In this document: positions 42,682-54,659 of the stretch, one piece after another
Layout: the number at the start of each line of letters is the position of its first letter
How positions within the stretch are numbered: position 1 is the first letter of the stretch
Assembly: GCA_019058445.1 (NCBI GenBank)
Contig: JAHPZA010000010.1
Coordinates: 448,001 to 512,000 of the forward strand
DNA length: 64,000 nt
DNA from: Promethearchaeota archaeon
GTDB taxonomy: Archaea; Asgardarchaeota; Lokiarchaeia; Sigyniarchaeales; SOKP01
Direction: 5' to 3'
Position numbers and translations under genes: made by a program
The notes under the pieces: generated by a model
Told to the model about the DNA's origin: nothing
The model's input: only the letters and a program-made list of their open reading frames with translations
Database searches by the model: none

Positions 42682-42900
42682 CTATTTATATTTAATAGAA
42701 AGTAAAAGATCATTCTTAGTAATTTTCTTTCTGTTCGCATGCATGGTAAAGGCTCGAGCTTGTTCAGTTAATCCAGTTGCTGTTTTTTCAAGATGATCAA
42801 TTAGCAGATTTACTGCGTTTCGAGCGACGATTGACGCGCCTTGTTGTTTCATAAGCCTTCGAATTGGGCTCCATGCGAATGCATGTTTCTTTTTAGCCAT
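42682..42900 (-). CDS. Archaeal histone (HMf-like fold) with short Lys-rich N-tail
   Basis: PIRRLMK…GA…HANRKKITKND; GGAGG RBS. Confidence 0.92.
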   Translation of the reverse strand: MAKKKHAFAWSPIRRLMKQQGASIVARNAVNLLIDHLEKTATGLTEQARAFTMHANRKKITKNDLLLSIKYK

Positions 42901-43603: not shown

Positions 43604-44224
43604 ATGGCACAACAAATTATGGTTCCAGGTGCGTGTGGAGTAGCAATAAAGTGTAAAGATGGAGTTGTTCTTGGAAATGATCGAAGAGCGACTTGGGGGT
43701 ATACTGTTACGAATAAATCTACAAGAAAGGTATTTAAAATAACAGACCACATAGGACTCACAGCATACGGATTAATTGGGGACTTTCAGTTATTAGTTAA
43801 AATTTTAAGAGCTCAAGCGAATCTATATGAATTAGATGCAGGGGAAAGAATTTCCACTAAGAGTATGGGAAAATTGGTTTCTAATTACCTCTACTCCAGA
43901 AAAATGTACCCCTTATATACAAACTTAGTTATCGCTGGAATGGAAATAGATGGTATCCCTTCCCTATATACTTTGGATGCCATAGGTTCTTTAATGCCTG
44001 ATGATTATGGCACTGCCGGAACCGGGATGCTATTATCAATTGGAATTTTAGAAGCGGAATATAAGCCTGATATAACTGTTGCGGAGGGTGAAAAATTGGT
44101 GGAAAAGACAATCAGAAATTCAATAACGAGGGATGCGATGAGCGGAAATGGTATAGACATTTTGACTATTACTAAAGATGGTGCCAAAGAAAAGTATATC
44201 GATATTAACGAATTAGGAGAATAA
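43604..44224 (+). CDS. psmB: Proteasome beta subunit lacking the catalytic Thr1
   Basis: DGVVLGNDRRAT, KVFKI, GLIGD, RDAMSGNG; PG-ACG in place of G-TTT. Confidence 0.92.
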   Translation: MAQQIMVPGACGVAIKCKDGVVLGNDRRATWGYTVTNKSTRKVFKITDHIGLTAYGLIGDFQLLVKILRAQANLYELDAGERISTKSMGKLVSNYLYSRKMYPLYTNLVIAGMEIDGIPSLYTLDAIGSLMPDDYGTAGTGMLLSIGILEAEYKPDITVAEGEKLVEKTIRNSITRDAMSGNGIDILTITKDGAKEKYIDINELGE

Positions 44225-44283
44225 TTAGGTAATTCACTCTTTTTAATAATTAGGTTTAAAAAATTTCATTTTGATTTGGCTTT

Positions 44284-46371
44284 TTGAATGGTGCTTTTAA
44301 TTTGAGATTAATTAATAACAATTTTAACGATATTGAAGAAATAAACGGATTTTCGAAAGAAGAATTAATTGATATTAAAAGAAAACTAACAAAATTAAAC
44401 TTAGATAAAGCGGATCAAACAGAAATTGAAGGATATCTCTCTGAGAAATTTTCAAGTGAAATAATTGAGTTTTATTCTAATTATCTGAATGAAATAAAAA
44501 CCTTTATTTTTGAAAATCTATTATCGACAACGGATTCTCAAAATAGAATAAATTTTAATCACTTTCCTCTAAAATCTGGAATTAAAAATGAGATTAAAAA
44601 AATATATAATAATTTATTGAATTTAAAGGTAAATGCTCAAAATACGAAGAGATTTTTAAAGAATAGTGCTTTCCTTGATGAGTTGTTAATAACGATCCAA
44701 GATATCATGAAAGAATATCAGGATTTAACTTCTCAATTAAATGTTCCAGAAAATAGAGTTACGGATATTTATGATAATTATGCCTATATCTGGATTGAAA
44801 TTAATAAATTAAAAAATCAATACTTTAAAATCAATAACTTGACAGAAGATTTAACAAATTGGGATGAGTTCCAAGGGTTTTATGAATGTATTAGAAATAA
44901 TATCATCGAATCTACTAAAAAAAAAGAGCGCAAGAAAAAAAATTTCATCATAACTACCCATTTTAATGATATTTATTCATATTTCAGCAAGTTAAAAGGA
45001 GAAAATCCCGATATCTATACAGATTTAATCGCTTTCTTATACAATATAAATCTAATTGAGGAGTTTAAAGAAAAAATAGAGGATCTTGATGAATATGTAA
45101 ATATTCTTGATAGAAAGGAAATTAAAAATAGAATTAAATCTTTAATGAATCCAATAATTAAAAAGTTAATTGAGGATAAAATAAAAGGAACTTTAAACGA
45201 AATTATTGAATTAGATAAAACTTCCAGATTAGGAGATCAGAAAAAAGACATAAACATAAAGAGGGTTTTAGAACAGAAAATTGGTACGTATTTACCTCAA
45301 ATAATTGATTATTATTTAAAAGGATTAGAAAATAAGTATCAAGCTGCTATTAGTGATTTAAAGGGATATGATGAATTTAAAAATGTGGCAAAATTTTATT
45401 CTGAAAAAATAGATATTCTCAATTCTCAAGTTGAGGAAATAGAAAATTATTTTGCTAATTACACTTTAATTTTAAAACCTTATGAGGATATCATAAATAA
45501 ACATAAGAAAACTCTTTCGAATATAACTTCTGAAATTGAAAGAAGGAAAAATGAATATTTATTTTACCTCAAAACTATAAGAAAGGAAAGATTGAGGGAT
45601 AATATAAGAACATTTATTTTTGAGAAAATAACAGAAGTTAATACTTTAATGAGTAAATATCAAGATGAAACTTCACTGATTGTAAGGGAAGAATTTCCTC
45701 AGCTAAAAAAAATGCAAAATATTCTTAGTGAATACAAAGTAAATATTCAAAAAATAAAAGATGAAGTATATCAAAAAATAGATTCTTTTAAAGAAAAAGA
45801 CATTGATATCTATCAAATTATTAAGCAATGGGAGGATAATTTTACACTTAAAAAACAGCAATTAAGTTTTCTCCTGAGTCTGTTAATAAATAAATTGTTT
45901 AAAAGTTTTAAGGATATGATTGAAGAAGAAAAATTGTTATATGAGCACATTACTGATATTACTAATCAAAACGAGAATTATGATAATCTTCCCTTAAATT
46001 TCGCTATATCAAATCTTTTAGTTGACAAATTAACTGAAGATGAATTAGATGAAAGAATTAACGAGATTCACTCAAAAATTGAAAACCTCAATAAAGAAAT
46101 AGAACTTTACAGAGCAGAACTCTCCAATTTAAAAAGAACTTTAGCAAATAAGGTAAAGATCAGAGAGGGAATAACTAGTGATGATATCCAATGCGGTGTC
46201 TGCCGAAAAAAGTTTGATTTTTCGAAAGATAAAATAATAAAATGTCCGTTTTGCGGTGCTGTATTTCATTATTTATGCGTTGCGTCATGGCTCAGTAAAC
46301 ACAACGCTTGCCCTTCATGTCAGAATACTTTTCTTGATCCAAATGCAGGTATTTATTCTGATCAAGAATAA
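44284..46371 (+). CDS. Coiled-coil protein with C-terminal RING finger, putative E3 ligase
   Basis: C-x2-C-x13-C-x2-C-x4-H-x2-C-x3-W-x6-C-x2-C. Confidence 0.8.
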   Translation: MNGAFNLRLINNNFNDIEEINGFSKEELIDIKRKLTKLNLDKADQTEIEGYLSEKFSSEIIEFYSNYLNEIKTFIFENLLSTTDSQNRINFNHFPLKSGIKNEIKKIYNNLLNLKVNAQNTKRFLKNSAFLDELLITIQDIMKEYQDLTSQLNVPENRVTDIYDNYAYIWIEINKLKNQYFKINNLTEDLTNWDEFQGFYECIRNNIIESTKKKERKKKNFIITTHFNDIYSYFSKLKGENPDIYTDLIAFLYNINLIEEFKEKIEDLDEYVNILDRKEIKNRIKSLMNPIIKKLIEDKIKGTLNEIIELDKTSRLGDQKKDINIKRVLEQKIGTYLPQIIDYYLKGLENKYQAAISDLKGYDEFKNVAKFYSEKIDILNSQVEEIENYFANYTLILKPYEDIINKHKKTLSNITSEIERRKNEYLFYLKTIRKERLRDNIRTFIFEKITEVNTLMSKYQDETSLIVREEFPQLKKMQNILSEYKVNIQKIKDEVYQKIDSFKEKDIDIYQIIKQWEDNFTLKKQQLSFLLSLLINKLFKSFKDMIEEEKLLYEHITDITNQNENYDNLPLNFAISNLLVDKLTEDELDERINEIHSKIENLNKEIELYRAELSNLKRTLANKVKIREGITSDDIQCGVCRKKFDFSKDKIIKCPFCGAVFHYLCVASWLSKHNACPSCQNTFLDPNAGIYSDQE

Positions 46372-46397
46372 GAACTAACTAAAATAAATCAAATAAA

Positions 46398-47588
46398 TCA
46401 ATATTTATATTTTGGAGGTGTTTTACTCTTAATATTATTATGAGGAGTTTTACTTTTAATATGATCTTTTTGTATTGCTTTAAATTTTTTTATCTCTGTG
46501 TCCAATCTCTTTTTTTCTTGCTGCAATTGCGCTTTCTCTTGATCTAATTTCTTTCTTTCGCGTTGTATATTCTTTTTTTCATTATTTATATTATTTTTTT
46601 CTTTTTCTATTCGATTTTTTTCACTCTCATTATAAGATTGAATTTTCTCTTTTTCATGTTGTAATCTTCTTAATTCATTTTTTAAACGTTCGATTTTATT
46701 CTCTAAATCTCGTGCCTTATTTTCTAATGAGCCTTTTCTTTTTTCTAATCCCGGGATTTTATTTCGTATATTTTTTACGAGAGCCTCCTCATTTTTTCTA
46801 TCTCTACCCAACGTCTGTTTTTCTCTGTTAATTTCATTTTTCAAGCTTTCTAACTCAATAGTTTTCTTTTTCATATCTTTTAATTTCTTATTGAGATCAT
46901 CGGTTTTTTTCCTAAGATTTTCTCTAGCATCTTTAAGTTTTTTCTTTTCGGCATTAATTAGAGCTTGGCTATTTATTACTTCTTTACGTATACTATCTAA
47001 TTCGTTTTTTAAACGGTTTCTATCATTTGAAAGGTGATCAATTTCAGTTGTTAAATTATCTACTTCTTTCTCTAGTTTAAATTTCTTGTTTTCCAGATCA
47101 TTTCCTCTTTTTTCTAACCCAGGGATTTTAGTTTTTATTTCTGTTAATTGCTTTCCTCTTTTTTGCTTTTCAAAATCCCAATCCTTTTTCTCATTATTAA
47201 TATCATCTCTTACCTTGTTTAACTCATCTCTTTGCTTATTAATTTCATTTATGATATTAGCATATTCCTGTTTCTTTCCTTGAATTTTTTTATTTCCATC
47301 ATTGATTATTTTTTTAATATTATCTAATTCGTTAGCTAATTGATCCTTTTCATAAATTAATTCCTTAATTTCATTTTCTCTTTCCTTTCTTTTTCTTTCT
47401 AAATCTTTAATCGCTTCTTGATATCCTTGTATTTTACTAACTATATTTTCCCATTCCCTACGTTCTTCTTCCAATTTTTGGCGCTCGAACTTAATTTTTT
47501 TGAGCAAAGTTTTATCAGCAGTTAATATTTCTTCTTTCTCAGGAGTTTTTTCTTGGATTTGATACTTAGGAGGTTTGTTATTCTTCAT
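46398..47588 (-). CDS. Long coiled-coil protein with internal duplication
   Basis: Continuous heptads; KIPGLEKR…LENK occurs twice. Confidence 0.75.
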   Translation of the reverse strand: MKNNKPPKYQIQEKTPEKEEILTADKTLLKKIKFERQKLEEERREWENIVSKIQGYQEAIKDLERKRKERENEIKELIYEKDQLANELDNIKKIINDGNKKIQGKKQEYANIINEINKQRDELNKVRDDINNEKKDWDFEKQKRGKQLTEIKTKIPGLEKRGNDLENKKFKLEKEVDNLTTEIDHLSNDRNRLKNELDSIRKEVINSQALINAEKKKLKDARENLRKKTDDLNKKLKDMKKKTIELESLKNEINREKQTLGRDRKNEEALVKNIRNKIPGLEKRKGSLENKARDLENKIERLKNELRRLQHEKEKIQSYNESEKNRIEKEKNNINNEKKNIQRERKKLDQEKAQLQQEKKRLDTEIKKFKAIQKDHIKSKTPHNNIKSKTPPKYKY

Positions 47589-47797
47589 TTGTTTTTATTC
47601 CTTAAAGATATATTTATTAATATAAATTCTAATTTATTATATCAAGGTACTCGATATATTTATAAAAGATACAGTCAAAACTAAATAATTATAATAAATG
47701 ACTTTATTTATATAGTCGAGCTCTTATTATTTATATACTAGTATAAATATAAATAGGTATTTTATAGCTAAAATAAAGAAAAAAAAGGTTGATTATT

Positions 47798-48139
47798 ATG
47801 GGTTTTGATGATGAATTTGATGAGGATTTAGGAGAACCTGAGGAAAAGACCCCTATGAAGTCTAAAACTCCATCGACTCCCCCAGCAGGGGGAAAGAAGA
47901 TGAATCTCTACTTTACATCTACAATTGGACCTGGTGAGAAGCGACAGAAATTATTAGTTGATGACGGTAATACCGTCGGTGCTGTTAAACAGACAATTGG
48001 CAATATTTTTGGATTAGATCCAGCAGATTTTCATTTATCTTCGGGAGGAGTTACAATGGATGATAGCTCTCCTTTAAGCTCATATAATGTAAATGATGGC
48101 GATGAAGTACTTTTAATACCAGCAAGTACTGCTGGTTAG
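47798..48139 (+). CDS. Ubiquitin-like modifier with disordered N-tail and C-terminal Ala-Gly
   Basis: Beta-grasp pattern TVGAVKQTI…FHLSSGG…LSSYNVNDGDEVLLIPASTAG*; directly upstream of E1. Confidence 0.88.
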   Translation: MGFDDEFDEDLGEPEEKTPMKSKTPSTPPAGGKKMNLYFTSTIGPGEKRQKLLVDDGNTVGAVKQTIGNIFGLDPADFHLSSGGVTMDDSSPLSSYNVNDGDEVLLIPASTAG

Positions 48140-48256
48140 TTTAGTTATGAAAATTAGATTAATGATATCTAATAAAAAACTCTACATTTTTTTTTATTTT
48201 TAAATATATTTTTAAATTAAGATTTTTATATATATAAAAGGTTAAGATAAGATTAG

Positions 48257-49489
48257 GTGGAAGATTTGGAAGAGGATTCTAATTTTTTTAGTAAAGAATT
48301 AACACCAGACGAGAGAGATCTGTATGATCGTCAGTTTAGATTGGAAGGATGGGATCAAAAACTAATTAAAAATTCACGAGTATTGATAGCGGGGGTAGGA
48401 GGATTAGGTTGTGAAATTGCTAAGAATTTGGCTATGTTGGGAGTGGGTCATCTTGACTTAGTAGATTTAGATATAATAGAACATTCGAATTTGAATCGAC
48501 AAATCCTCTTTACTGAGGCAAAAATGGGTGAGGCAAAAGCTGTAGTTGCCGCGAGAAAATTAACACAAATTAATCCAAACATTACAATTAAAGGTTATCA
48601 CAGTTCATTAGAAAGGCTCGATCCTGCGATTTATAAAGCAGCTGATGTTATTATCGGAGGTTTAGATTCGATGAATGCGAGACTTAATTTAAATGCTCAG
48701 TGTGTACGATTTAAAAAACCGCTTATCGATGGAGGTGTTGCGGGGTATAATGGACATATCTATACAGTTTACCCTTACGAAAACGCCTGTTATGAATGTG
48801 ATCCGCTTCCAGTTGCAGATATGGATGAAATGGCCGCATGCACTGTAGTGGGTGTCCCTAGAAAACGGGTTCACTGTATTTTTAAGGCAAATATGCTTTT
48901 CAAGGATGAAAATGATAGAGATCCTGATCCAAAAAATATAGAAGATGTAAATTTAATTCAAAATGAAGCAAACAAATTTGCTCAGAAACATAATTTTTTA
49001 CCGCTATTTTCAAAAGCAGATATTATTAAAATCATAGATAGACATGATCCTGGGATAATTACGATAAATTCAATTATATCTGCACTTCAATCGCATGAAA
49101 CCATCAAGGTTTTGCATTGGTTGAAAGGAAATAACGCGTTGGGAGAGCCTATCAAGTCCTATATTATTTTTAATGGAATGACCATGAAATTTTTCCCTAT
49201 TGAAAAGAAAAGAAATTTACAATGTCTCCAATGTGGTGACGAGGTACGGAGGGTAGTAATTGAAATTAATCGCAATACCAGTTGTGAGAAAATTGTAAAT
49301 AAGTTAGAAAAGATGGGATTTAATAAAAATCCGGAAATGGAGCCAACTTTAACAATAATGGACTTCAATAATATAAATATAATAGATACTGATCTTACGC
49401 CTATTGAAAATGATTTAAGAGATTTAGAATTGATAACAGCCGTAGGTTTTGATGGGGGAGAAATTTTTATAACTCTAAAAATCGTATAA
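48257..49489 (+). CDS. Ubiquitin-like activating enzyme E1 (UBA3-like monomeric)
   Basis: YDRQ, GVGGLG, DLDIIEHSNLNRQ, CYEC, probable catalytic ACTVVGVPR…HC, CLQC. Confidence 0.93.
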   Translation: MEDLEEDSNFFSKELTPDERDLYDRQFRLEGWDQKLIKNSRVLIAGVGGLGCEIAKNLAMLGVGHLDLVDLDIIEHSNLNRQILFTEAKMGEAKAVVAARKLTQINPNITIKGYHSSLERLDPAIYKAADVIIGGLDSMNARLNLNAQCVRFKKPLIDGGVAGYNGHIYTVYPYENACYECDPLPVADMDEMAACTVVGVPRKRVHCIFKANMLFKDENDRDPDPKNIEDVNLIQNEANKFAQKHNFLPLFSKADIIKIIDRHDPGIITINSIISALQSHETIKVLHWLKGNNALGEPIKSYIIFNGMTMKFFPIEKKRNLQCLQCGDEVRRVVIEINRNTSCEKIVNKLEKMGFNKNPEMEPTLTIMDFNNINIIDTDLTPIENDLRDLELITAVGFDGGEIFITLKIV

Positions 49490-49591
49490 ATTTTATTTAA
49501 ATTTCTTGTTTTAATTTAATTTATAATTGGTTATTATTATATTATATTCATAAGAAAATTAATAAAAAAATCAGAGGTTTGATAAAATAAA

Positions 49592-50119
49592 ATGAGTTTA
49601 AGAAGTAGTCGAGTTTCTCAGGATTTTGCTTCGCTTAAAAAGTTACTTAAGGATGGAACCATCGCTCAACTAAAACCTTTTAATCCAAAACAGAAAAGTA
49701 TTGATCATTTAGCTGTCCTGCTTAAAGGTCCTAAGGGGACCGCTTATCAAGGAGGAGTATTTAAACTGGAAATCAAATATCCCCCTACGTATCCCAGACA
49801 TCCACCATTCGTTCGCTTACATACTCCTATTTGGCATCCTAATTTTTGGCCAAAACCTTCTGAGTATCCTGGTCAGCGAAATATTTGTCTAGCGCTCGTA
49901 GATCCGAGTTTAGTAGGGAAAAAAGGAGGTTGGAGCCCATCAAAAACAATTGTCACTGTAATACAAGCAATTACAGCAATGTTTAATACGCGAGGTTTAT
50001 TCATTAATCCTACTGATGTATTTAACAAAAAAGCAGCTCTCGAAATGATGAATGATCGCAAAAATTTTGAGAAAAAGGTAAAGCATTTAGTTAAGAAGTA
50101 TGCTAATCAAAAATGGTGA
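49592..50119 (+). CDS. Ubiquitin-conjugating enzyme E2
   Basis: GPKGTAYQGGVF, YPRHPP, WHPN…NICL, WSPS. Confidence 0.95.
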   Translation: MSLRSSRVSQDFASLKKLLKDGTIAQLKPFNPKQKSIDHLAVLLKGPKGTAYQGGVFKLEIKYPPTYPRHPPFVRLHTPIWHPNFWPKPSEYPGQRNICLALVDPSLVGKKGGWSPSKTIVTVIQAITAMFNTRGLFINPTDVFNKKAALEMMNDRKNFEKKVKHLVKKYANQKW

Positions 50120-50940
50120 ATAGAAAAATGGAAAATGAAAAATCTGATGAAGATGCCATTAAAGAGGCCATAAAAAAGAGAATTAAAAATAAAATTAAGA
50201 AAGAACTATTGGAAGAAATCTATAATGAATTAAAGTTGGAGGAAGATGAATTAGCCGATGAGATTTCTTCATCACTTAGTAAAAATACAAAGAAAATTCC
50301 TACAGAATTACCCCTTTCCACAGAGATAATAAATGATATTAAAACTGAAGAAGTTGCGCCAAAAGATTTAGAAGATGATAAAACAGTAACTATATCAGTG
50401 AAGGCTATTCTCAAAATTGCCAGCCATGCACTGAAATATGCAAATCCAAATATTTCAAAAGATAAATGGGTTGAAGTCATTGGACTTTTGGCAGGTAAGC
50501 AGTATAATTACGGGCCTAAACTCCATATTGAAGATGCTTACCCTATGGGGCACGGCACTGCTGTTTATGCGGAAATTAAAGATTATAAAAATTTTGTAAG
50601 AGCGTTCAATGATATTAAGAAAAAGAAATTATTTATCTGTGGATGGTATCACTCTCATCCGTCATACGGAACATGGATGAGTGATGAAGATATTGGGACT
50701 CAAGCACGATATCAGAAGTTATGGGATAAAGCAATCGCACTTGTGGTTGATCCTTATCAAATTGATGGGACTTCATTAGGTTTTGATATTTTCAGAGCTA
50801 ATTTAAACACGAAAAAGTGGTTTTCTATACCATTTAGCGTCGAGGGTTCGCTTGATGTAAGATTATTACCTGAAATTTTAAATTTTATGAATCCTATAAT
50901 CGAGGGAAAGGCAGCATATCTCGAATATGATGAAGATTGA
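50113..50940 (+). CDS. JAMM/MPN+ isopeptidase (Rpn11/CSN5-like)
   Basis: EVIGLLAG, GWYHSHPSYGTWMSDED, VVDP. Confidence 0.93.
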   Translation: MVNRKMENEKSDEDAIKEAIKKRIKNKIKKELLEEIYNELKLEEDELADEISSSLSKNTKKIPTELPLSTEIINDIKTEEVAPKDLEDDKTVTISVKAILKIASHALKYANPNISKDKWVEVIGLLAGKQYNYGPKLHIEDAYPMGHGTAVYAEIKDYKNFVRAFNDIKKKKLFICGWYHSHPSYGTWMSDEDIGTQARYQKLWDKAIALVVDPYQIDGTSLGFDIFRANLNTKKWFSIPFSVEGSLDVRLLPEILNFMNPIIEGKAAYLEYDED

Positions 50941-50976
50941 TTTTAAAGTAGCAACTAGGAATTTGGTGAGCATTTT

Positions 50977-52155
50977 ATCGCGGTTAAAAAACAGAATCTT
51001 ATCATCTTATTAATTTTTTTTGGTATCGGTGTATTTCACGGTGTATTAATTTCAAATTCATTAAATAATTTTTTTTCTTGGTTATTGGTTGGATGTTGGA
51101 TTCTCTTTACAATTAAATTTTTTGAAAAAAGAAAAGAATATAATGAATATAATTCACAAAAAAATACATCATTCTTTCTCTTAGGTCCTTTAAGTGTGGG
51201 CCTATTTTATAACTTATGGGGTTATTTTACAGGATTATGGGGTGAAAATCTTTTCGAAAATACATTACCATTTTTATATATAAGCCTCTGGACTCTTATA
51301 TTTGCTTTTCCATACTTAATATACGGTTTATATACAATTCGAGCATGTTATACAAAATTTCATGTAGTATATCTCATAAAAACTAGATCTCTAAGTGCCC
51401 GCAAATTCGGAACATTTTATACGCTTTTACTTCTATTTGGAATTTTATTTTATATTGTATTTTTCAATATTATTCTGAATTATTTTTATATCATTGTAGA
51501 GCAAGTTTATTTCTATTTTGATATAATGCTCGTGGTAATATTTTTAACCTTAATTTATATATTCATAAGACACGGAATCTTTGGTTCAGCACGCTCTATG
51601 CCTGAGATTTCTCAAGATTATATAAACCGCCGAAGACAGCGCTTAAGAACAATGACCACTACTCCAGTTAGGGCTGCTCCAAGTAGACCTAAAACTACAA
51701 GAACCACATCACGACCAGCTCCAAGTAGACCTAAAACTACAAGAACCACATCACGACCAGCTTCAAATAGACCTAAAACTACAAAGACCGTTTCACGACC
51801 AGCTCCAAGTAAGCCAAAAACTACAAGAACAACAGCTCAAAAACCAAAAGTCGCTGCAAGTGCTGTCTTTGAGAAATATAAACCAAAAGCAGGAATTCTT
51901 TCATTAGAGGACTTTAAGTGTATATTTTGCTTTCAACTTCCTAAACTTCCTGCTGATACTCATCGTGGAATTGTTTTATGTCCAAATTGTAAACACCCAG
52001 CTCATGCGGATGAATTTAAAGAATGGACTCATGATTCTCCTCTCTGTTCTCGGTGTGATGCCCCAATTCCACCAAGTTTTAGGAGAAATCCCGTGATTAT
52101 CTCTGTCAAACAGTATGTTGATGTAATTAACGAGTATAAAAGAAGAAAGACATAG
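50977..52155 (+). CDS. Polytopic membrane protein with repeat linker and C-terminal RING-like domain (probable ATC start)
   Basis: About 6 TM segments; C-x2-C-x16-C-x2-C-x4-H-x2-E-x3-W-x6-C-x2-C; GGTGAG RBS at 50965. Confidence 0.75.
   Translation: MAVKKQNLIILLIFFGIGVFHGVLISNSLNNFFSWLLVGCWILFTIKFFEKRKEYNEYNSQKNTSFFLLGPLSVGLFYNLWGYFTGLWGENLFENTLPFLYISLWTLIFAFPYLIYGLYTIRACYTKFHVVYLIKTRSLSARKFGTFYTLLLLFGILFYIVFFNIILNYFYIIVEQVYFYFDIMLVVIFLTLIYIFIRHGIFGSARSMPEISQDYINRRRQRLRTMTTTPVRAAPSRPKTTRTTSRPAPSRPKTTRTTSRPASNRPKTTKTVSRPAPSKPKTTRTTAQKPKVAASAVFEKYKPKAGILSLEDFKCIFCFQLPKLPADTHRGIVLCPNCKHPAHADEFKEWTHDSPLCSRCDAPIPPSFRRNPVIISVKQYVDVINEYKRRKT
51676..51832 (+). repeat. 42-bp coding tandem repeat (APSRPKTTRTTSRP), ~3.7 copies
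   Basis: gctccaagtagacctaaaactacaagaaccacatcacgacca repeated. Confidence 0.9.
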
Positions 52156-52185
52156 TATAACAGTATTTTTTTTTATGTTTTATAA

Positions 52186-52911
52186 TCATTTAAGTCTTAA
52201 TTTATTTAGATTTTTACGGGCTTTCGAATTATTTGGGTCAATTCTTAAGGCTTTTTTATAACAATTGATTGCTTCTTCTAAAAAATTTAATTTTTCCAGT
52301 GCATATCCTTTATTATTCCAAGCCATGGAATTCTCTGGTTCTATTTTTATAGTATTTTCAAAGCATTTCACGGTTTGTTCATATTGACTTAAATCTGCAT
52401 GTAATAGTCCTTTTTCAAATAGAGCATGTGAATTGTCAGGATTAATTTTTAAAGCTTCATTGTAAAAAAAAATCATCGTTTTCTGCCAGTCAGAATCTTC
52501 ATTTGTGCAATCCCACATCAGAACTTCAGCTGGATGTTTATCTTTCCACCATTCAACATAATGCTTACAAGAACAAAATAATTTGATTTCCTTAGCATCT
52601 TTTATCTCTATACCATTTTCAAAGTCAGTATCACAAATAAAGCAAGTTCCATCTGTACCTACTAGAGGCATGATATTATTATGCCAAGGTAACCGATAAT
52701 CCCCTTCAGAATAAATTCCATAAATGTACATAGGTCCTTGAGCGATTCTACACCTTGTGTACCAATTGGCGCAATAAGTATATCCAGAATTTATAATATG
52801 TACGTTTCTTATGGGGCAATAATTTTCAATCCAGGGTTCTTTACGTTCATCTTTATCTAATTTTCGTTTAAAAATGCAGGTTGCACAGCAATCTGAACCA
52901 CCATTTGGCAT
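52186..52911 (-). CDS. Cys-rich N-terminal domain plus TPR repeats
   Basis: MPNGGSDCCATC…; AWNNKGYAL…AINCYKKALRIDP. Confidence 0.8.
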   Translation of the reverse strand: MPNGGSDCCATCIFKRKLDKDERKEPWIENYCPIRNVHIINSGYTYCANWYTRCRIAQGPMYIYGIYSEGDYRLPWHNNIMPLVGTDGTCFICDTDFENGIEIKDAKEIKLFCSCKHYVEWWKDKHPAEVLMWDCTNEDSDWQKTMIFFYNEALKINPDNSHALFEKGLLHADLSQYEQTVKCFENTIKIEPENSMAWNNKGYALEKLNFLEEAINCYKKALRIDPNNSKARKNLNKLRLK

Positions 52912-52956
52912 TGAATTAACCTTCTTGTACTGCAATTTTAAATTTGAAGTATTAAA

Positions 52957-53616
52957 TCATATTTGAGGAGGGAAAATAATAATATTCACAGCTAAAAATA
53001 TACCAAAACCAATCATAAATAATCCGCAGCCAATTAAGACATATTTATAGATATTTGGATTTAATGACTTCCCACCAAGATATACAAATATTGAAAGAGG
53101 AACATAAAATATAAAATCGCCTAATATATGGCCAAAATAAAACAGTAGCAAACCTATTGGATTTTCAAAGCTAATTCCAAAATTAATCATGAAACTTAAA
53201 CCGATAACAGCCCACCAAAAAGTCCAAAAAGGATTAGAAAGGCTTACGACAATACCCCCGATGAAGCTATTTCCCTTAAAACCTTTAATATCTGCTTCTT
53301 CAATTGATTGAAAATCAAACTTAAGCGGATTATTAATGGTATCTCTAATCACAAAACCTCCAAAGATAACTAACAATATACCTCCTACAACACCAATAAT
53401 TGTTAAAATTAAAAGGTCTCTTAAAAATAAAGAAGCACCTAATAACAATAGACATATCATTCCAAATTCTAAGGTAGCATGGCCCAAAATAATAAAAATT
53501 CCGGATAAATATCCTCTTTTTTGAACGGACTTGTAAATAGTAAATGTTAAAACTGGTCCAGGAGATAATGCTCCCGTTAATGCTATCAGAAAGGAAAAAA
53601 TAAAAATTTCAATCAT
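52957..53616 (-). CDS. LysE-family translocator
   Basis: ALSPGP, GHATLE, LSNPFWTFWW. Confidence 0.85.
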   Translation of the reverse strand: MIEIFIFSFLIALTGALSPGPVLTFTIYKSVQKRGYLSGIFIILGHATLEFGMICLLLLGASLFLRDLLILTIIGVVGGILLVIFGGFVIRDTINNPLKFDFQSIEEADIKGFKGNSFIGGIVVSLSNPFWTFWWAVIGLSFMINFGISFENPIGLLLFYFGHILGDFIFYVPLSIFVYLGGKSLNPNIYKYVLIGCGLFMIGFGIFLAVNIIIFPPQI

Positions 53617-53768
53617 ATTAAAAAAGAGAGTTTTTATGCAAATAAATCTGAAATTTGATAAAAACTTTATATGTATAAATTCAAAATAAAAACAAATATA
53701 AGGTAAAATTAAGGTTAATTTCTTATAAGTCGGTTTAAGAAAATAATTAGACTATTATTTATAAAAAA

Positions 53769-54659
53769 ATGTCCGAAGAATCTCTTGATAATGATGATAA
53801 TTCCAAGTCGGAATTCGTATCGAGACTATACAATTGTCCGAAGTGCAGATTGATGCATACAGTAAAGCTCCCTAAAGATATCGCCCAAAATAAACCTGTT
53901 TTTCCTTTTCCATACGTATTTTTACATTCTTCTGAGGAAGGACTTGATGATATCCTTACTGTTCTTTATATTGATGTAGAACTTCATATACGTGCTGTTG
54001 AAGTTATGGAAGTTGACGAAACCAATATTTTTTCTGAAGATCTTACTAAACAAATTACTGAAAAGTTAATGGATAAGATTGTGAGCTTAGAAGAAGAAAA
54101 TTTACAGTTAAAAGACCTAATTCGCAAAATGGAGTTAGTTAAAGTAAGTGGATTAGAGGGAAAGAATCCAAGAGTTATGAGCATTCCGAAATTGGAATAT
54201 GAATCTGAGATAAAGGAAAAACCAATCACTTTGGAGCCTCAAATTCCAAAACTAAAGGAGATAAATGAAAAAAAGCCATTATTTGATTTACAGGAAATAC
54301 CCATGCCTGAGATTGAGTCTAAAGAACCCATGCCTGAGATTGAGTCTAAAGAACCCATACCCGAGATTAGATCTAAACAACCCATCCTAGAGTCTGAAGA
54401 CTTTTTCGATATAATTAAAGTGTATATTACATCTACGGTTGGACCAGGAGAAAAAAAACAGGATTTACGGGTAAAATTAAGTAATAAAGTCATTGATATT
54501 AAAGATACAATCGGAAAGATCTTTGGTTTAACACCCTCAAATTTCCATCTTTCCTCGGGAGGAATTACATTTGATGAACAGCTGCTCCTAAAGGATTATT
54601 ATATTGAAGAAGGAGACGAAATTCTTATTATTCCTTCAAGCACAGCAGGATTTTTTTAA
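53769..54659 (+). CDS. Zinc-ribbon domain, coiled coil, repeat linker and C-terminal ubiquitin-like domain ending AG-FF
   Basis: CPKC…H; C-terminal domain paralogous to the Ubl at 47798 (TSTVGPGEKKQ, FHLSSGG, GDEILIIPSSTAGFF). Confidence 0.85.
   Translation: MSEESLDNDDNSKSEFVSRLYNCPKCRLMHTVKLPKDIAQNKPVFPFPYVFLHSSEEGLDDILTVLYIDVELHIRAVEVMEVDETNIFSEDLTKQITEKLMDKIVSLEEENLQLKDLIRKMELVKVSGLEGKNPRVMSIPKLEYESEIKEKPITLEPQIPKLKEINEKKPLFDLQEIPMPEIESKEPMPEIESKEPIPEIRSKQPILESEDFFDIIKVYITSTVGPGEKKQDLRVKLSNKVIDIKDTIGKIFGLTPSNFHLSSGGITFDEQLLLKDYYIEEGDEILIIPSSTAGFF
54300..54380 (+). repeat. 27-bp coding tandem repeat (PMPEIESKE), 3 copies
   Basis: cccatgcctgagattgagtctaaagaa twice plus one degenerate copy. 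Confidence 0.9.

Follow-up and report, generated by a model that had tools for sequence, protein, structure and literature searches.

A five-gene cluster from an Asgard archaeon was found to consist of genes for a ubiquitin-fold (Ubl) modifier ending in Ala-Gly (AG), an E1, an E2, a JAMM protease and a polytopic membrane RING protein, and we consider it probable (roughly 0.72) that this cluster is a ubiquitin-type conjugation module of Asgard archaea with its own modifier family. The DNA analyzed (the window) was a 64,000-nt stretch of Promethearchaeota archaeon (GTDB lineage Archaea; Asgardarchaeota; Lokiarchaeia; Sigyniarchaeales; SOKP01; GCA_019058445.1, contig JAHPZA010000010.1, positions 448,001 to 512,000, forward strand). 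The core spans 47798-52155 of the window on the plus strand. Upstream of it lie a proteasome beta paralogue lacking Thr1, a RING protein with coiled coils and a divergently transcribed coiled-coil gene, and downstream is a 296-aa protein with the C-terminus STAG-FF. By ORF translation, all genes named at 43604-54659 are intact and on the following strands:

43604-44224, plus: proteasome beta-subunit paralogue, predicted inactive (Pfam Proteasome, 168.6 bits)
44284-46371, plus: coiled-coil RING protein, candidate second E3 (695 aa; zf-RING_2, 32.6 bits, cut-off 27.3, residues 636-680)
46398-47588, minus: divergent coiled-coil protein (396 aa; coiled-coil-type Pfam matches only)
47798-48139, plus: ubiquitin-family modifier (113 aa; Pfam ubiquitin, 29.6-30.9 bits, cut-off 25.4)
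48257-49489, plus: E1 activating enzyme (410 aa; Pfam ThiF, 205 bits)
49592-50119, plus: E2 conjugating enzyme (175 aa; Pfam UQ_con, 87.2 bits)
50113-50940, plus: Rpn11-like JAMM/MPN+ metalloprotease (275 aa; Pfam JAB, 51.4 bits)
50977-52155, plus: polytopic membrane RING protein, candidate membrane E3 (about 5-6 TM helices; RING-type finger at the C-terminus)
53769-54659, plus: 296-aa Ubl-fusion (C-terminal Pfam ubiquitin, 23.0 bits, just under the cut-off of 25.4)

The intergenic gaps are 117 nt between the modifier and E1 genes, 102 nt between E1 and E2, and 144 nt between JAMM and membrane RING (36 nt if the latter begins at 50977), while the E2 stop and JAMM start overlap by 7 nt. The initial annotation had described these genes as a co-directional, tightly spaced and self-contained pathway with an AG-ending modifier, a membrane RING and a second Ubl-fusion downstream, and this description was upheld: all of the genes are present, and the core has its own enzyme set apart from the other E1/E2 sets of the genome. 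Two such further sets were detected together with Gly-Gly-type modifiers, one arranged as JAMM, E1 (292 aa), E2-like, Ubl (ending in VVGG) and small RING, and the other a separate E1 (528 aa)/E2 pair. As judged by HMM and sequence searches, the core is a cascade of ubiquitin type and not of UFM1, ATG or SAMP type, nor is it a known defence system. A complete and widely conserved cluster with an Ala-Gly tag and a membrane RING suggests that this genome has a second route for tagging proteins, distinct from its Gly-Gly systems. No paper describing the Ala-Gly modifier family was found in the literature.

The modifier and its Ala-Gly end

The modifier begins with an acidic/KSKTP tail of some 35 aa, continues with a beta-grasp core and has the C-terminus LLIPASTAG, after which a stop codon comes directly. 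Its reading frame was listed as 47789-48139 and includes an ATG at 47798, which is most likely the start because homologues begin with MGF or MSF. An AF2 model of the protein (pLDDT 92) had ubiquitins as its best Foldseek matches, with Caldiarchaeum ubiquitin at the top (30% identity). By profile search, Pfam ubiquitin was matched by 17/17 family members tested and Pfam Ufm1 by 0/17, and a search of the genome with PF03671 (Ufm1) gave no match.

The Ala-Gly end proved invariant. The C-terminus IP[AS]STAG was present in 120/120 best homologues, with a stop directly after AG in 86 of these and 1-4 unconserved extra residues in the remaining 34. The more distant representatives inspected that had a complete C-terminus all carried AG, either terminal or followed by a short tail, as did every locus sampled from eight families.

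The last ~80 residues of the downstream 296-aa protein form a modifier paralogue (56% identity by tblastn) that ends in STAG plus FF, though its Pfam match is below cut-off. An orthologue at locus L013 has the C-terminus STAGLF, and one at L033 has a single terminal Gly (RVAG) and then a stop, with no STAG. Fusion proteins of 274-565 aa with AG as the exact end were also present in a 50%-identity library. The paralogue tails after Gly in this genome are FF and YE; such residues might be leftovers that are tolerated, not pro-peptides.

E1, E2 and JAMM protease

The E1 combines one ThiF adenylation domain and four Zn cysteines with a catalytic Cys195 in AACTVVG, and its C-terminal extension is likely a ubiquitin-fold domain. 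Its best solved relatives were UBA1 (138 bits), SAE2 (136) and UBA3 (116), compared to 61 bits for UBA5, and Cys195 aligned to the stretch that carries the catalytic Cys in UBA1 and SAE2. Across 12 E1 orthologues, GxGGLG, SNLNRQ, the Mg Asp and the four Zn cysteines were invariant. In the E2, HPN and Cys99 are invariant and separated by a 6-residue insertion; mean column identity was 78% over 16 aligned orthologues, and the best solved relatives were canonical UBCs (e.g., UBE2F, Ubc13 and UBE2T). The JAMM protease has an intact HSHPSYGTWMSDED motif, as read from the translation, and a charged N-terminal extension of ~90 aa. It was closest among solved structures to the Caldiarchaeum Rpn11 homologue (64 bits), which processes pro-ubiquitin (PMC5654768), followed by Rpn11 (57) and CSN5 (46).

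The membrane RING protein and its modeled fit to E2

The frame of the membrane RING gene opens at 50959 and contains a single ATG/GTG/TTG, the TTG listed at 51085. Upstream of this codon the frame encodes a conserved first TM helix, and the start is probably ATC at 50977. Between the TM part and the finger lies a basic Thr/Pro-rich repeat linker. The finger follows the pattern C-x2-C-x16-C-x2-C-x4-H-x2-E-x3-W-x6-C-x2-C, in which C18, C21, C38, C41, H46, E49, W53, C60 and C63 were invariant in 18 orthologues. The protein had no Pfam match above a cut-off; 11/18 orthologous fingers did match zf-RING_2, and all 18 gave sub-threshold matches to Prok-RING_1 (best E 1.9e-6), a likeness to bacterial Prok-RING_1 proteins. 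An AF2 model (pLDDT 90.9) retrieved RING/U-box E3 domains as all of its top 50 Foldseek matches, although these were weak (best E 1.4e-3). With several membrane passes and then a cytoplasmic RING-type finger modeled on a canonical E2 surface, the protein resembles eukaryotic membrane ligases that act in protein quality control (Hrd1 and Doa10/MARCH type), and any relation to ERAD is by analogy only. By contrast to these proteins and to Prok-RING_1, the membrane part could not be shown to belong to a sequence family, and an invariant Glu occupies the position of the sixth zinc ligand.

The modeled E2-RING complex scored 0.63, compared to 0.00 for the best control, and so passed a mark reached by 58/80 solved complexes and 2/110 mismatched pairs. 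Because RING and E2 form a textbook pair, the pass shows likeness and may be owed to memorisation by the predictor. Runs agreed in at least 96% of contacts, with partner pLDDT of at least 88. In the modeled interface, RING residues 19-23, W53 and 56-64 lie against the 108-118 SPSK loop, helix 1 and residue 68 of the E2, suggesting that the finger docks on a canonical-looking RING-binding face of the E2.

Conservation and distribution

Lack of conserved gene order in relatives had been named at the outset as grounds against a dedicated pathway. The order Ubl-E1-E2-JAMM-membrane RING was found to be kept in 27/27 related loci fetched (L011-L020, L022-L031 and L032-L038), a number of which are truncated where a contig ends; the arrangement is far beyond chance. 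Among the Asgard GTDB families sampled, at least eight have the five-gene core, and E1 identity falls as low as 43%. The membrane RING was detected in 125/301 genomes and the AG modifier in 122/301, in the same nine of 30 families sampled, and neither was detected in the large families f9 (0/76) and f14 (0/19). Within the window's own family the module was present in 57-60 of 68 genomes. Four genomes had neither RING nor modifier, including two rated 100% complete and one closed.

Proposed pathway and alternative readings

From the evidence, all of it computational, of domain identities, intact catalytic motifs, AG invariance, gene order, shared distribution and canonical-looking E2-RING model, we infer the chemical steps, the role of the Ala and the substrates as follows. 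The modifier would have a ubiquitin fold, a disordered tail at its N-terminus and a mature Ala-Gly C-terminus. The E1, a compact homologue of canonical E1s, would adenylate the terminal Gly and load the modifier onto Cys195, such that an ATP-dependent thioester would form on the AG end. The dedicated HPN-type E2 would then receive the modifier on its Cys99. From there it would be moved to substrate lysines, with the polytopic membrane RING protein presenting the substrates and its cytoplasmic finger docking where RINGs canonically bind an E2. The Rpn11-like JAMM protease would trim the 1-4 residue tails after Gly of some paralogues (FF, YE) and probably reverse conjugation as well. The invariant penultimate Ala may insulate the AG pathway from the Gly-Gly systems of the same genome.

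ATG8 and ATG12 are activated by ATG7, a non-canonical E1. Eukaryotic modifiers without a Gly-Gly end use non-canonical E1s, which counts against the proposed action of a canonical-type E1 on Ala-Gly, and no precedent for such an E1 was found.

The cluster could instead be a known Asgard/Caldiarchaeum-type ubiquitin operon in which Ala-Gly is a neutral spelling of Gly-Gly, with enzymes and targets common to the other Ubl systems of the cell, a reading that we regard as unlikely. It has the same parts list as the cascades reconstituted from Caldiarchaeum and Helarchaeia (PMC5654768; bioRxiv 10.1101/2023.07.25.550441). The Caldiarchaeum subterraneum operon, reconstituted in vitro, encodes CsUb, an E1-like protein, an E2-like protein, a small protein with a RING finger and CsRpn11 (PMC5654768; PMC6043591); common to both clusters are the ubiquitin fold of the modifier, an E1 of one domain with a catalytic Cys, an E2 of the UBC type, a RING E3 and an Rpn11-like JAMM protease. 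CsRpn11 cleaves the C-terminal tail off the precursor of its modifier, a role proposed here too for the JAMM protease. The modifier and JAMM are structurally or by score closest to CsUb and CsRpn11, and the E1 and E2 are of canonical type. By contrast to Caldiarchaeum, the modifier ends in Ala-Gly instead of Gly-Gly and has the conserved N-terminal tail, the E1 is longer, with its C-terminal extension and best scores to UBA1, SAE2 and UBA3, and the small soluble RING is replaced as E3 by a ~390-aa polytopic membrane protein whose finger is C4-H-E-C2. The Helarchaeia E1/E2/RING E3 cascade, also an Asgard ubiquitin-type cascade with a short modifier pro-peptide, has a Gly-Gly pro-ubiquitin, an ESCRT neighbourhood and UEV-Vps23 as target (bioRxiv 10.1101/2023.07.25.550441; for Asgard ubiquitin-ESCRT work see also PMC9192718), whereas the present cluster has Ala-Gly and a membrane RING in last position and lacks ESCRT neighbours within the window. 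Drift would be expected at a neutral position, yet the Ala is invariant in a family diverged to 43% E1 identity across nine of the 30 sampled families, which argues against neutral spelling. In addition, the AG modifier family is always accompanied by an E1, an E2, a protease and a membrane RING of its own, and E1/E2 sets apart from these, with Gly-Gly-type modifiers, are present in the genome, including a Caldiarchaeum-like set.

We find it quite improbable that the cluster corresponds, in Asgard archaea, to one of the single-Gly systems of eukaryotes (UFM1-like or ATG8/ATG12-like) and attaches the modifier at membranes to a special target (ribosome, lipid or one partner protein) and not to many proteins. 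Like UFM1, which has a Val-Gly end and is activated by UBA5 (PMC12355090), the modifier has one terminal Gly, and a membrane-embedded ligase is the last operon gene. Some paralogues are capped by two residues, as pro-UFM1 is. Structure-based Ufm1 homologues, which may or may not be the AG family, were described in 2026 from nine Asgard clades (PMC12962969). However, the profile searches and Foldseek matches place the modifier with ubiquitins and not Ufm1, the E1 scores higher to UBA1 than to UBA5, and the E2 has HPN and is closest to canonical UBCs, not UFC1. An antiviral module like the Bil/CBASS-Cap2 systems of bacteria (Ubl, E1, E2 and JAB) is the least probable reading. The cluster shares gene content with these and has an E1 ThiF domain matching Cap2 E1-E2 models (up to 61 bits), but PADLOC had no match for the modifier, E2, JAMM protease or either RING protein, and presence in most genomes of the family with fixed neighbours is vertical and housekeeping-like, not patchy.

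Flanking genes

Beyond the ubiquitin-type core, the initial annotation had proposed a cytosolic E3 arm and a link to the proteasome; both genes lie upstream as described, but their synteny with the operon was confined to genera g1 and g3 of one family and not seen at g2, g5, g8 and the other-family loci fetched. The proteasome beta gene is only loosely associated with the operon. Its product scored 204 bits to NCBIfam arc_protsome_B, under the cut-off of 224, and aligned with two Thr1-bearing beta paralogues of the genome; Ala replaces the Thr1 nucleophile (GACGVAI for GTTTVG) and RRAT replaces KRAT. This adjacent subunit is predicted to be catalytically dead, and any link of the operon to the proteasome is conjectural. 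The soluble RING has a C-terminal C4HC3 finger, and orthologues (40-72% identity) were located upstream of the operon only in L012, L032, L033 and L037. The 1.4 kb between this gene and the operon contains the opposite-strand coiled-coil gene, orthologues of which adjoin the operon in families f1, f2, f4 and f18. Both termini of the divergent coiled-coil protein are conserved, with PPKYQIxEKTP at the N-terminus and IK[ST]KTP repeats at the C-terminus, and the K[ST]KTP motif occurs in only 4 ORFs genome-wide.

Organization of the Ala-Gly operon

The genome from which the window derives (4.6 Mb in 10 contigs, with a completeness rating of 92.6%) has metagenome-assembled Promethearchaeota/Promethearchaeia (Loki-type Asgard) as its nearest public relatives, and the GC content of the window is low (about 25-34%). 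The genes considered are listed below.

Genes of the Ala-Gly operon and its neighbors (window coordinates, strand, product and Pfam score where available)
43604-44224, +, proteasome beta homolog
44284-46371, +, coiled-coil protein of 695 aa with a RING at its C-terminus (zf-RING_2, 32.6 bits)
46398-47588, -, coiled-coil protein of 396 aa
47789/47798-48139, +, ubiquitin-like modifier with the end ...LLIPASTAG-stop
48257-49489, +, E1 (ThiF, 205 bits)
49592-50119, +, E2 (UQ_con, 87.2 bits)
50113-50940, +, JAMM protease (JAB, 51.4 bits)
50959/51085-52155, +, membrane protein with a Cys/His-rich C-terminus (membrane RING)
Between the membrane RING gene and the Ubl-fusion, opposite strand, a TPR gene and a LysE-like gene
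53769-54659, +, Ubl-fusion, a 296-aa protein whose end repeats the modifier domain, followed by FF (23.0 bits)

The initial annotation had described a clustered and tightly spaced set of genes for a modifier, E1, E2, JAMM protease and membrane RING. This description was confirmed, since the assignments are supported by Pfam (all exceed the curated cut-offs, save for the finger of the membrane protein and the second Ubl, which scores 23.0 bits) and the spacing from the modifier gene through to the membrane RING gene is tight (117, 102, -7 and 144 nt).

The operon is conserved across Asgard families

Ten loci found by use of the E1 (61-91% identity) were all of the order Ubl-E1-E2-JAMM-membrane RING, as far as their contigs reach. 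Ten loci from another seven sampled families, with E1s of 43-71% identity, had the same five genes; every modifier there ends in AG, and the gene order is rearranged in one of these families. Gene-order conservation in relatives, on which the reading of these genes as one pathway had been made to depend, was borne out by these loci, the one rearranged family aside.

Of 301 genomes sampled across the phylum, 125 had a hit to the membrane RING domain and 122 matched the AG modifier profile, with nearly equal tallies per family. The two were detected in 57 and 60, respectively, of the 68 genomes of the window's family (f1), 26 and 22 of the 28 of f7, 18 and 17 of the 21 of f24, and 8 and 9 of the 11 of f16, while all 76 genomes of f9 and all 19 of f14 were negative for both. 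Four genomes were without both, including two rated 100% complete (window's own family) and a closed one (4.4 Mb, same order), in which these queries did not detect the AG operon. We read this shared distribution as a pattern and not as a statistic, because related genomes are not independent.

The modifier has a ubiquitin fold and an invariant Ala-Gly end

The ubiquitin family PF00240 matched all 17 family members tested, with the modifier of the window at 30.9 bits (cut-off 25.4). The core of the modifier was modeled by AF2 as a beta-grasp (pLDDT 92), for which Foldseek ranked the Caldiarchaeum ubiquitin (30% identity) and ubiquitin itself as the best matches. No Lys or Arg lies close to its C-terminus, and trypsin would leave a long remnant on any target. 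The Gly-Gly end by which a ubiquitin-type cascade is recognized was absent; Ala-Gly was found in its place in 120/120 best homologs and at all loci examined. In a protein collection clustered at 90%, 790 clusters matched the modifier at E <= 1e-5, and the best 120 all end in IP[AS]STAG, with the stop directly after AG in 86 and 1-4 unconserved residues added in 34. Besides more distant members that end in IP[VHFT]S[TLRV]AG, a library at 50% identity contained proteins (270-570 aa) whose last residues are exactly AG and a single protein with the modifier repeated three times. Source names of AG family members include Lokiarchaeota, Helarchaeota, Hermodarchaeota and Sigynarchaeum, and one distant member (...IPHSTAG) carries the name Hodarchaeales archaeon.

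The residues that follow the terminal Gly have a median length of 2 aa (n=23), compared to a median of 9 aa expected on loss of the stop in untailed genes (n=22). Such short tails fit trimming or selection against long tails, and the explanation of the tails as mere stop-codon loss is weakened, not disproved, by their being shorter than expected.

The N-terminal part of the Ubl-fusion (residues 16-111, with one CxxC; 53769-54100) was without any matching Pfam family and has a paralog of 38% identity elsewhere on the contig (G000:C10:658846-659124).

E1, E2 and JAMM protease of the operon

By comparison of scores, the E1 is closest to UBA1 (138 bits), SAE2 (136) and UBA3 (116) in their active adenylation domains, with Uba4 at 65 and UBA5 at 61. 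Its Cys195 (...MAACTVVGVPRKRVHCI...) lines up with the stretch that holds the catalytic Cys in UBA1 and SAE2, and is invariant in 12 orthologs down to 42% identity together with GxGGLG, SNLNRQ, the GLD aspartate and the four zinc cysteines. In an alignment of 16 E2 orthologs, H82, P83, N84 and C99 were invariant (mean column identity 78%); a six-residue insertion lies between the HPN and Cys99, and the closest solved relatives are ordinary UBCs. The HxHx7Sx2D motif of the JAMM protease was read in translation as intact, HSHPSYGTWMSDED plus an upstream Glu, and its closest solved relatives are the Caldiarchaeum Rpn11 homolog, followed by Rpn11 and CSN5. Judged by these residues, the enzymes of the operon look functional. 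At one locus of the same genus (L033:6743-7296, genome G138) the E2 is split between two overlapping frames, one covering residues 1-86 and the other 84-175, through a frameshift or an assembly error.

The membrane RING as a putative E3 ligase

Within the finger of the membrane protein (C-terminal 95 residues, 262-356), C18, C21, C38, C41, H46, E49, W53, C60 and C63 were invariant among 18 orthologs. The order of ligands is the C4HC3 of the upstream soluble RING, but with Glu at the sixth position. Prok-RING_1 matched 18/18 of these fingers and zf-RING_2 11/18, all below the cut-offs. For the structural model of the finger (pLDDT 90.9), the best 50 Foldseek matches were solely RING/U-box E3 domains, although weak (best E 1.4e-3, TM about 0.5).

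When the E2 and the finger were modeled as a complex with two zinc ions, a score of 0.63 was obtained compared to 0.00 for the best control; this mark is reached in 58/80 solved complexes and in 2/110 mismatched pairs. The runs share at least 96% of contacts with a partner pLDDT of at least 88, and the contacts are those of the textbook, with helix 1 and the SPSK loop of the E2 placed against the conserved Trp and the residue after the first Cys of the finger. The model supports a predicted binding of finger and E2, as a likeness and not a proof, because RING-E2 complexes are well documented and the predictor may be reproducing solved examples. By the positive-inside rule, the basic character of the linker that follows the last transmembrane (TM) helix suggests that the finger faces the cytoplasm.

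Upstream neighbors are lineage-specific

The initial annotation had further proposed a soluble E3 arm and a link to the proteasome, based on the genes upstream of the modifier. In two genera of the window's family (g1 and g3), the operon is preceded by the genes for the beta subunit, the coiled-coil RING protein and the divergent coiled-coil protein. These three were not found upstream in g2, g5, g8 or other families, where extra modifier genes are present; the divergent coiled-coil gene alone is kept more widely (f1, f2, f4 and f18). The adjacent beta subunit reads GACGVAI where two paralogs of the genome have GTTTVG, such that the Thr1 nucleophile is absent, and RRAT where the paralogs read KRAT/SQAT (i.e., Arg for Lys33 or Gln). 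It is thus without the Thr1 after a propeptide and the Lys33 of an active 20S beta subunit. Its orthologs that adjoin the coiled-coil RING gene in g1 and g3 (79-85% identity) share these substitutions, and the two other beta genes of the genome retain Thr1. Thus, the synteny behind the proposed soluble arm and proteasome link held for g1 and g3, with a predicted inactive adjacent beta, and we regard both as lineage-specific neighborhoods since the beta and RING genes lie upstream only in these genera.

Genome-wide, just four ORFs contain the motif K[ST]KTP. Two of them encode the modifier (once, in its N-terminal tail; 47798-47900) and the divergent coiled-coil protein (twice, at its C-terminus). 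About 20 orthologs of the coiled-coil protein keep an N-terminal PPKYQIxEKTP and a C-terminal IK[ST]KTP, and in 20 modifier homologs sampled the tail has a [KR]SKTPA-like stretch (many exact) and an acidic FDEFDEDL box. A possible role for the motif is that of an acceptor or docking site.

A 72-aa ORF with a Lys-rich N-terminus (42682-42900, - strand), some 700 bp upstream of the beta gene, looks by eye like an archaeal histone-fold protein.

Other ubiquitin-like sets reside in the same genome

The Ala-Gly pathway is one of at least three ubiquitin-type sets in the genome. A Caldiarchaeum-like set on contig C9 (G000:C9:220391-224363) encodes a JAMM protein (162 aa), an E1 (292 aa; C9:220916-221794), an E2-like protein (193 aa), a modifier ending in VVGG, a membrane protein and a RING-like protein of 73 aa. 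On contig C10 (G000:C10:384298-387082), a 528-aa E1 (C10:384298-385884) lies beside a 171-aa UBC E2, and a separate ubiquitin-family gene with the end TQAGGI was found at C9:758170-758394. A paralogous mini-module without enzymes (loci L004 and L005, G000:C6:372359-375301) includes a modifier paralog ending in STAG-YE (C6:374192-374554), a two-TM protein that ends in a related Ubl without the terminal Gly (...LIPSRIPQK), and a 222-aa protein that has the basic Thr/Arg-rich linker and RING finger of the membrane ligase with no membrane part. The Gly-less membrane Ubl adjoins the operon at five of the related loci (L014, L016, L017, L035 and L036).

Relation to known modifier systems

UFM1 is activated by the non-canonical UBA5, and a UFM1-type assignment of the family was prompted by its single Gly, two-residue cap and preceding IIP/LIP. 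This assignment was rejected on the basis of Pfam, enzyme type and the ubiquitin folds: PF03671 matched no family member tested at E up to 10 (genome-wide, a 13.5-bit chance match elsewhere was the only one), the E1 is of UBA1 and not UBA5 type (138 vs 61 bits), and the HPN of the E2 is invariant, unlike a UFC1-type E2. Köstlbacher et al. 2026 report structure-based Ufm1 homologs in Asgard archaea (PMC12962969). Reviews describe Gly-Gly as typical of modifiers and the Val-Gly of UFM1 as the exception (PMC12355090).

A SAMP/Urm1/MoaD-ThiS type of system, in which a Gly-Gly modifier is served by an E1 only, is touched on by a sub-threshold ThiS match to the modifier (13.8 bits), and is at odds with the Ala-Gly end and the dedicated E2 and RING proteins of the cluster. 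A defense system (Bil, CBASS Cap2/Cap3) was dismissed, as the PADLOC models showed generic ThiF similarity of up to 61 bits for the E1 and did not match any of the five remaining proteins.

The cascades of Caldiarchaeum (PMC5654768, PMC6043591) and of Helarchaeia (bioRxiv 10.1101/2023.07.25.550441) have been reconstituted, with Gly-Gly exposed after removal of a tail. By contrast to their Gly-Gly modifiers and small soluble RINGs, the operon described here has an Ala-Gly modifier and a membrane RING. Our literature search, of incomplete coverage, returned no report of an Ala-Gly or single-Gly modifier family in Asgard archaea, and for G75A only double-mutant uses were found.

A proposed orthogonal tagging pathway

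As predicted from the encoded proteins, the operon is a real, conserved and complete ubiquitin-type module. Its special points are the invariant Ala-Gly alongside a canonical-type E1, the membrane RING with a Glu ligand, and the Gly-Gly systems that are co-resident. We propose a reading in several parts, to which, taken jointly, we assign a chance of roughly one in four. The module may represent an ancient, Asgard-wide and orthogonal tagging pathway that extends from lineages of the Loki type to Hodarchaeales. What keeps it separate from the Gly-Gly systems of the same genome might be the penultimate Ala, acting as a code, though the E1 is canonical; the main reason to view Ala as a possible mark of specificity is that the pathway coexists with at least two other sets. 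The polytopic RING ligase might tag membrane proteins, as a prokaryotic forerunner or analog of ERAD/MARCH-type ligases. K[ST]KTP, which the modifier's tail and the neighboring coiled-coil protein have in common, might serve as the acceptor or docking site. Lastly, the proteins of 270-590 aa with an end exactly at Ala-Gly might be ligated whole onto targets.

The ubiquitin-type cascades of Asgard archaea are cited in support of a pre-eukaryotic origin of the eukaryotic ubiquitin network. The operon points to a second modifier family, served by an E1, an E2, a protease and a membrane ligase of its own. This family is conserved in many Asgard families, includes a named Hodarchaeales protein, and coexists with Gly-Gly systems in one genome. 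If this holds, parallel and mutually insulated Ubl pathways already existed in archaea, like eukaryotic ubiquitin, SUMO and NEDD8. The operon also offers a small and defined test case for how a canonical-type E1 reads the penultimate residue of its modifier, and for whether membrane-embedded RING ligases existed before the endomembrane system.

Start codons and transcription signals

The start of the modifier was set at the ATG at 47798 (113 aa), as homologs begin with MGF/MSF. The frame of the membrane RING opens at 50959 and its sole ATG/GTG/TTG is at 51085; a TM helix kept in orthologs is encoded 5' of the latter. A GGTGAG box followed after six bases by ATC (50977) is retained in the related locus L013, whose frame opens one codon earlier, and L011 reads GGTGAA and then ATT. 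Based on this arrangement, the membrane RING gene likely starts at a non-AUG codon. A sigma-70 promoter scan, not relevant to archaea, gave matches at the shuffled expectation. The sequencing runs listed as containing the operon are of sediment and soil DNA, with no RNA run among them. The PASTAG codons (CCA GCA AGT ACT GCT GGT; 48118-48146) form a 7-bp hairpin/inverted repeat that is followed by a T-rich stretch. A conserved terminator at this position was rejected, and the hairpin is read as a by-product of the peptide motif, because third-position pairing is kept in only about 4/13 orthologs.
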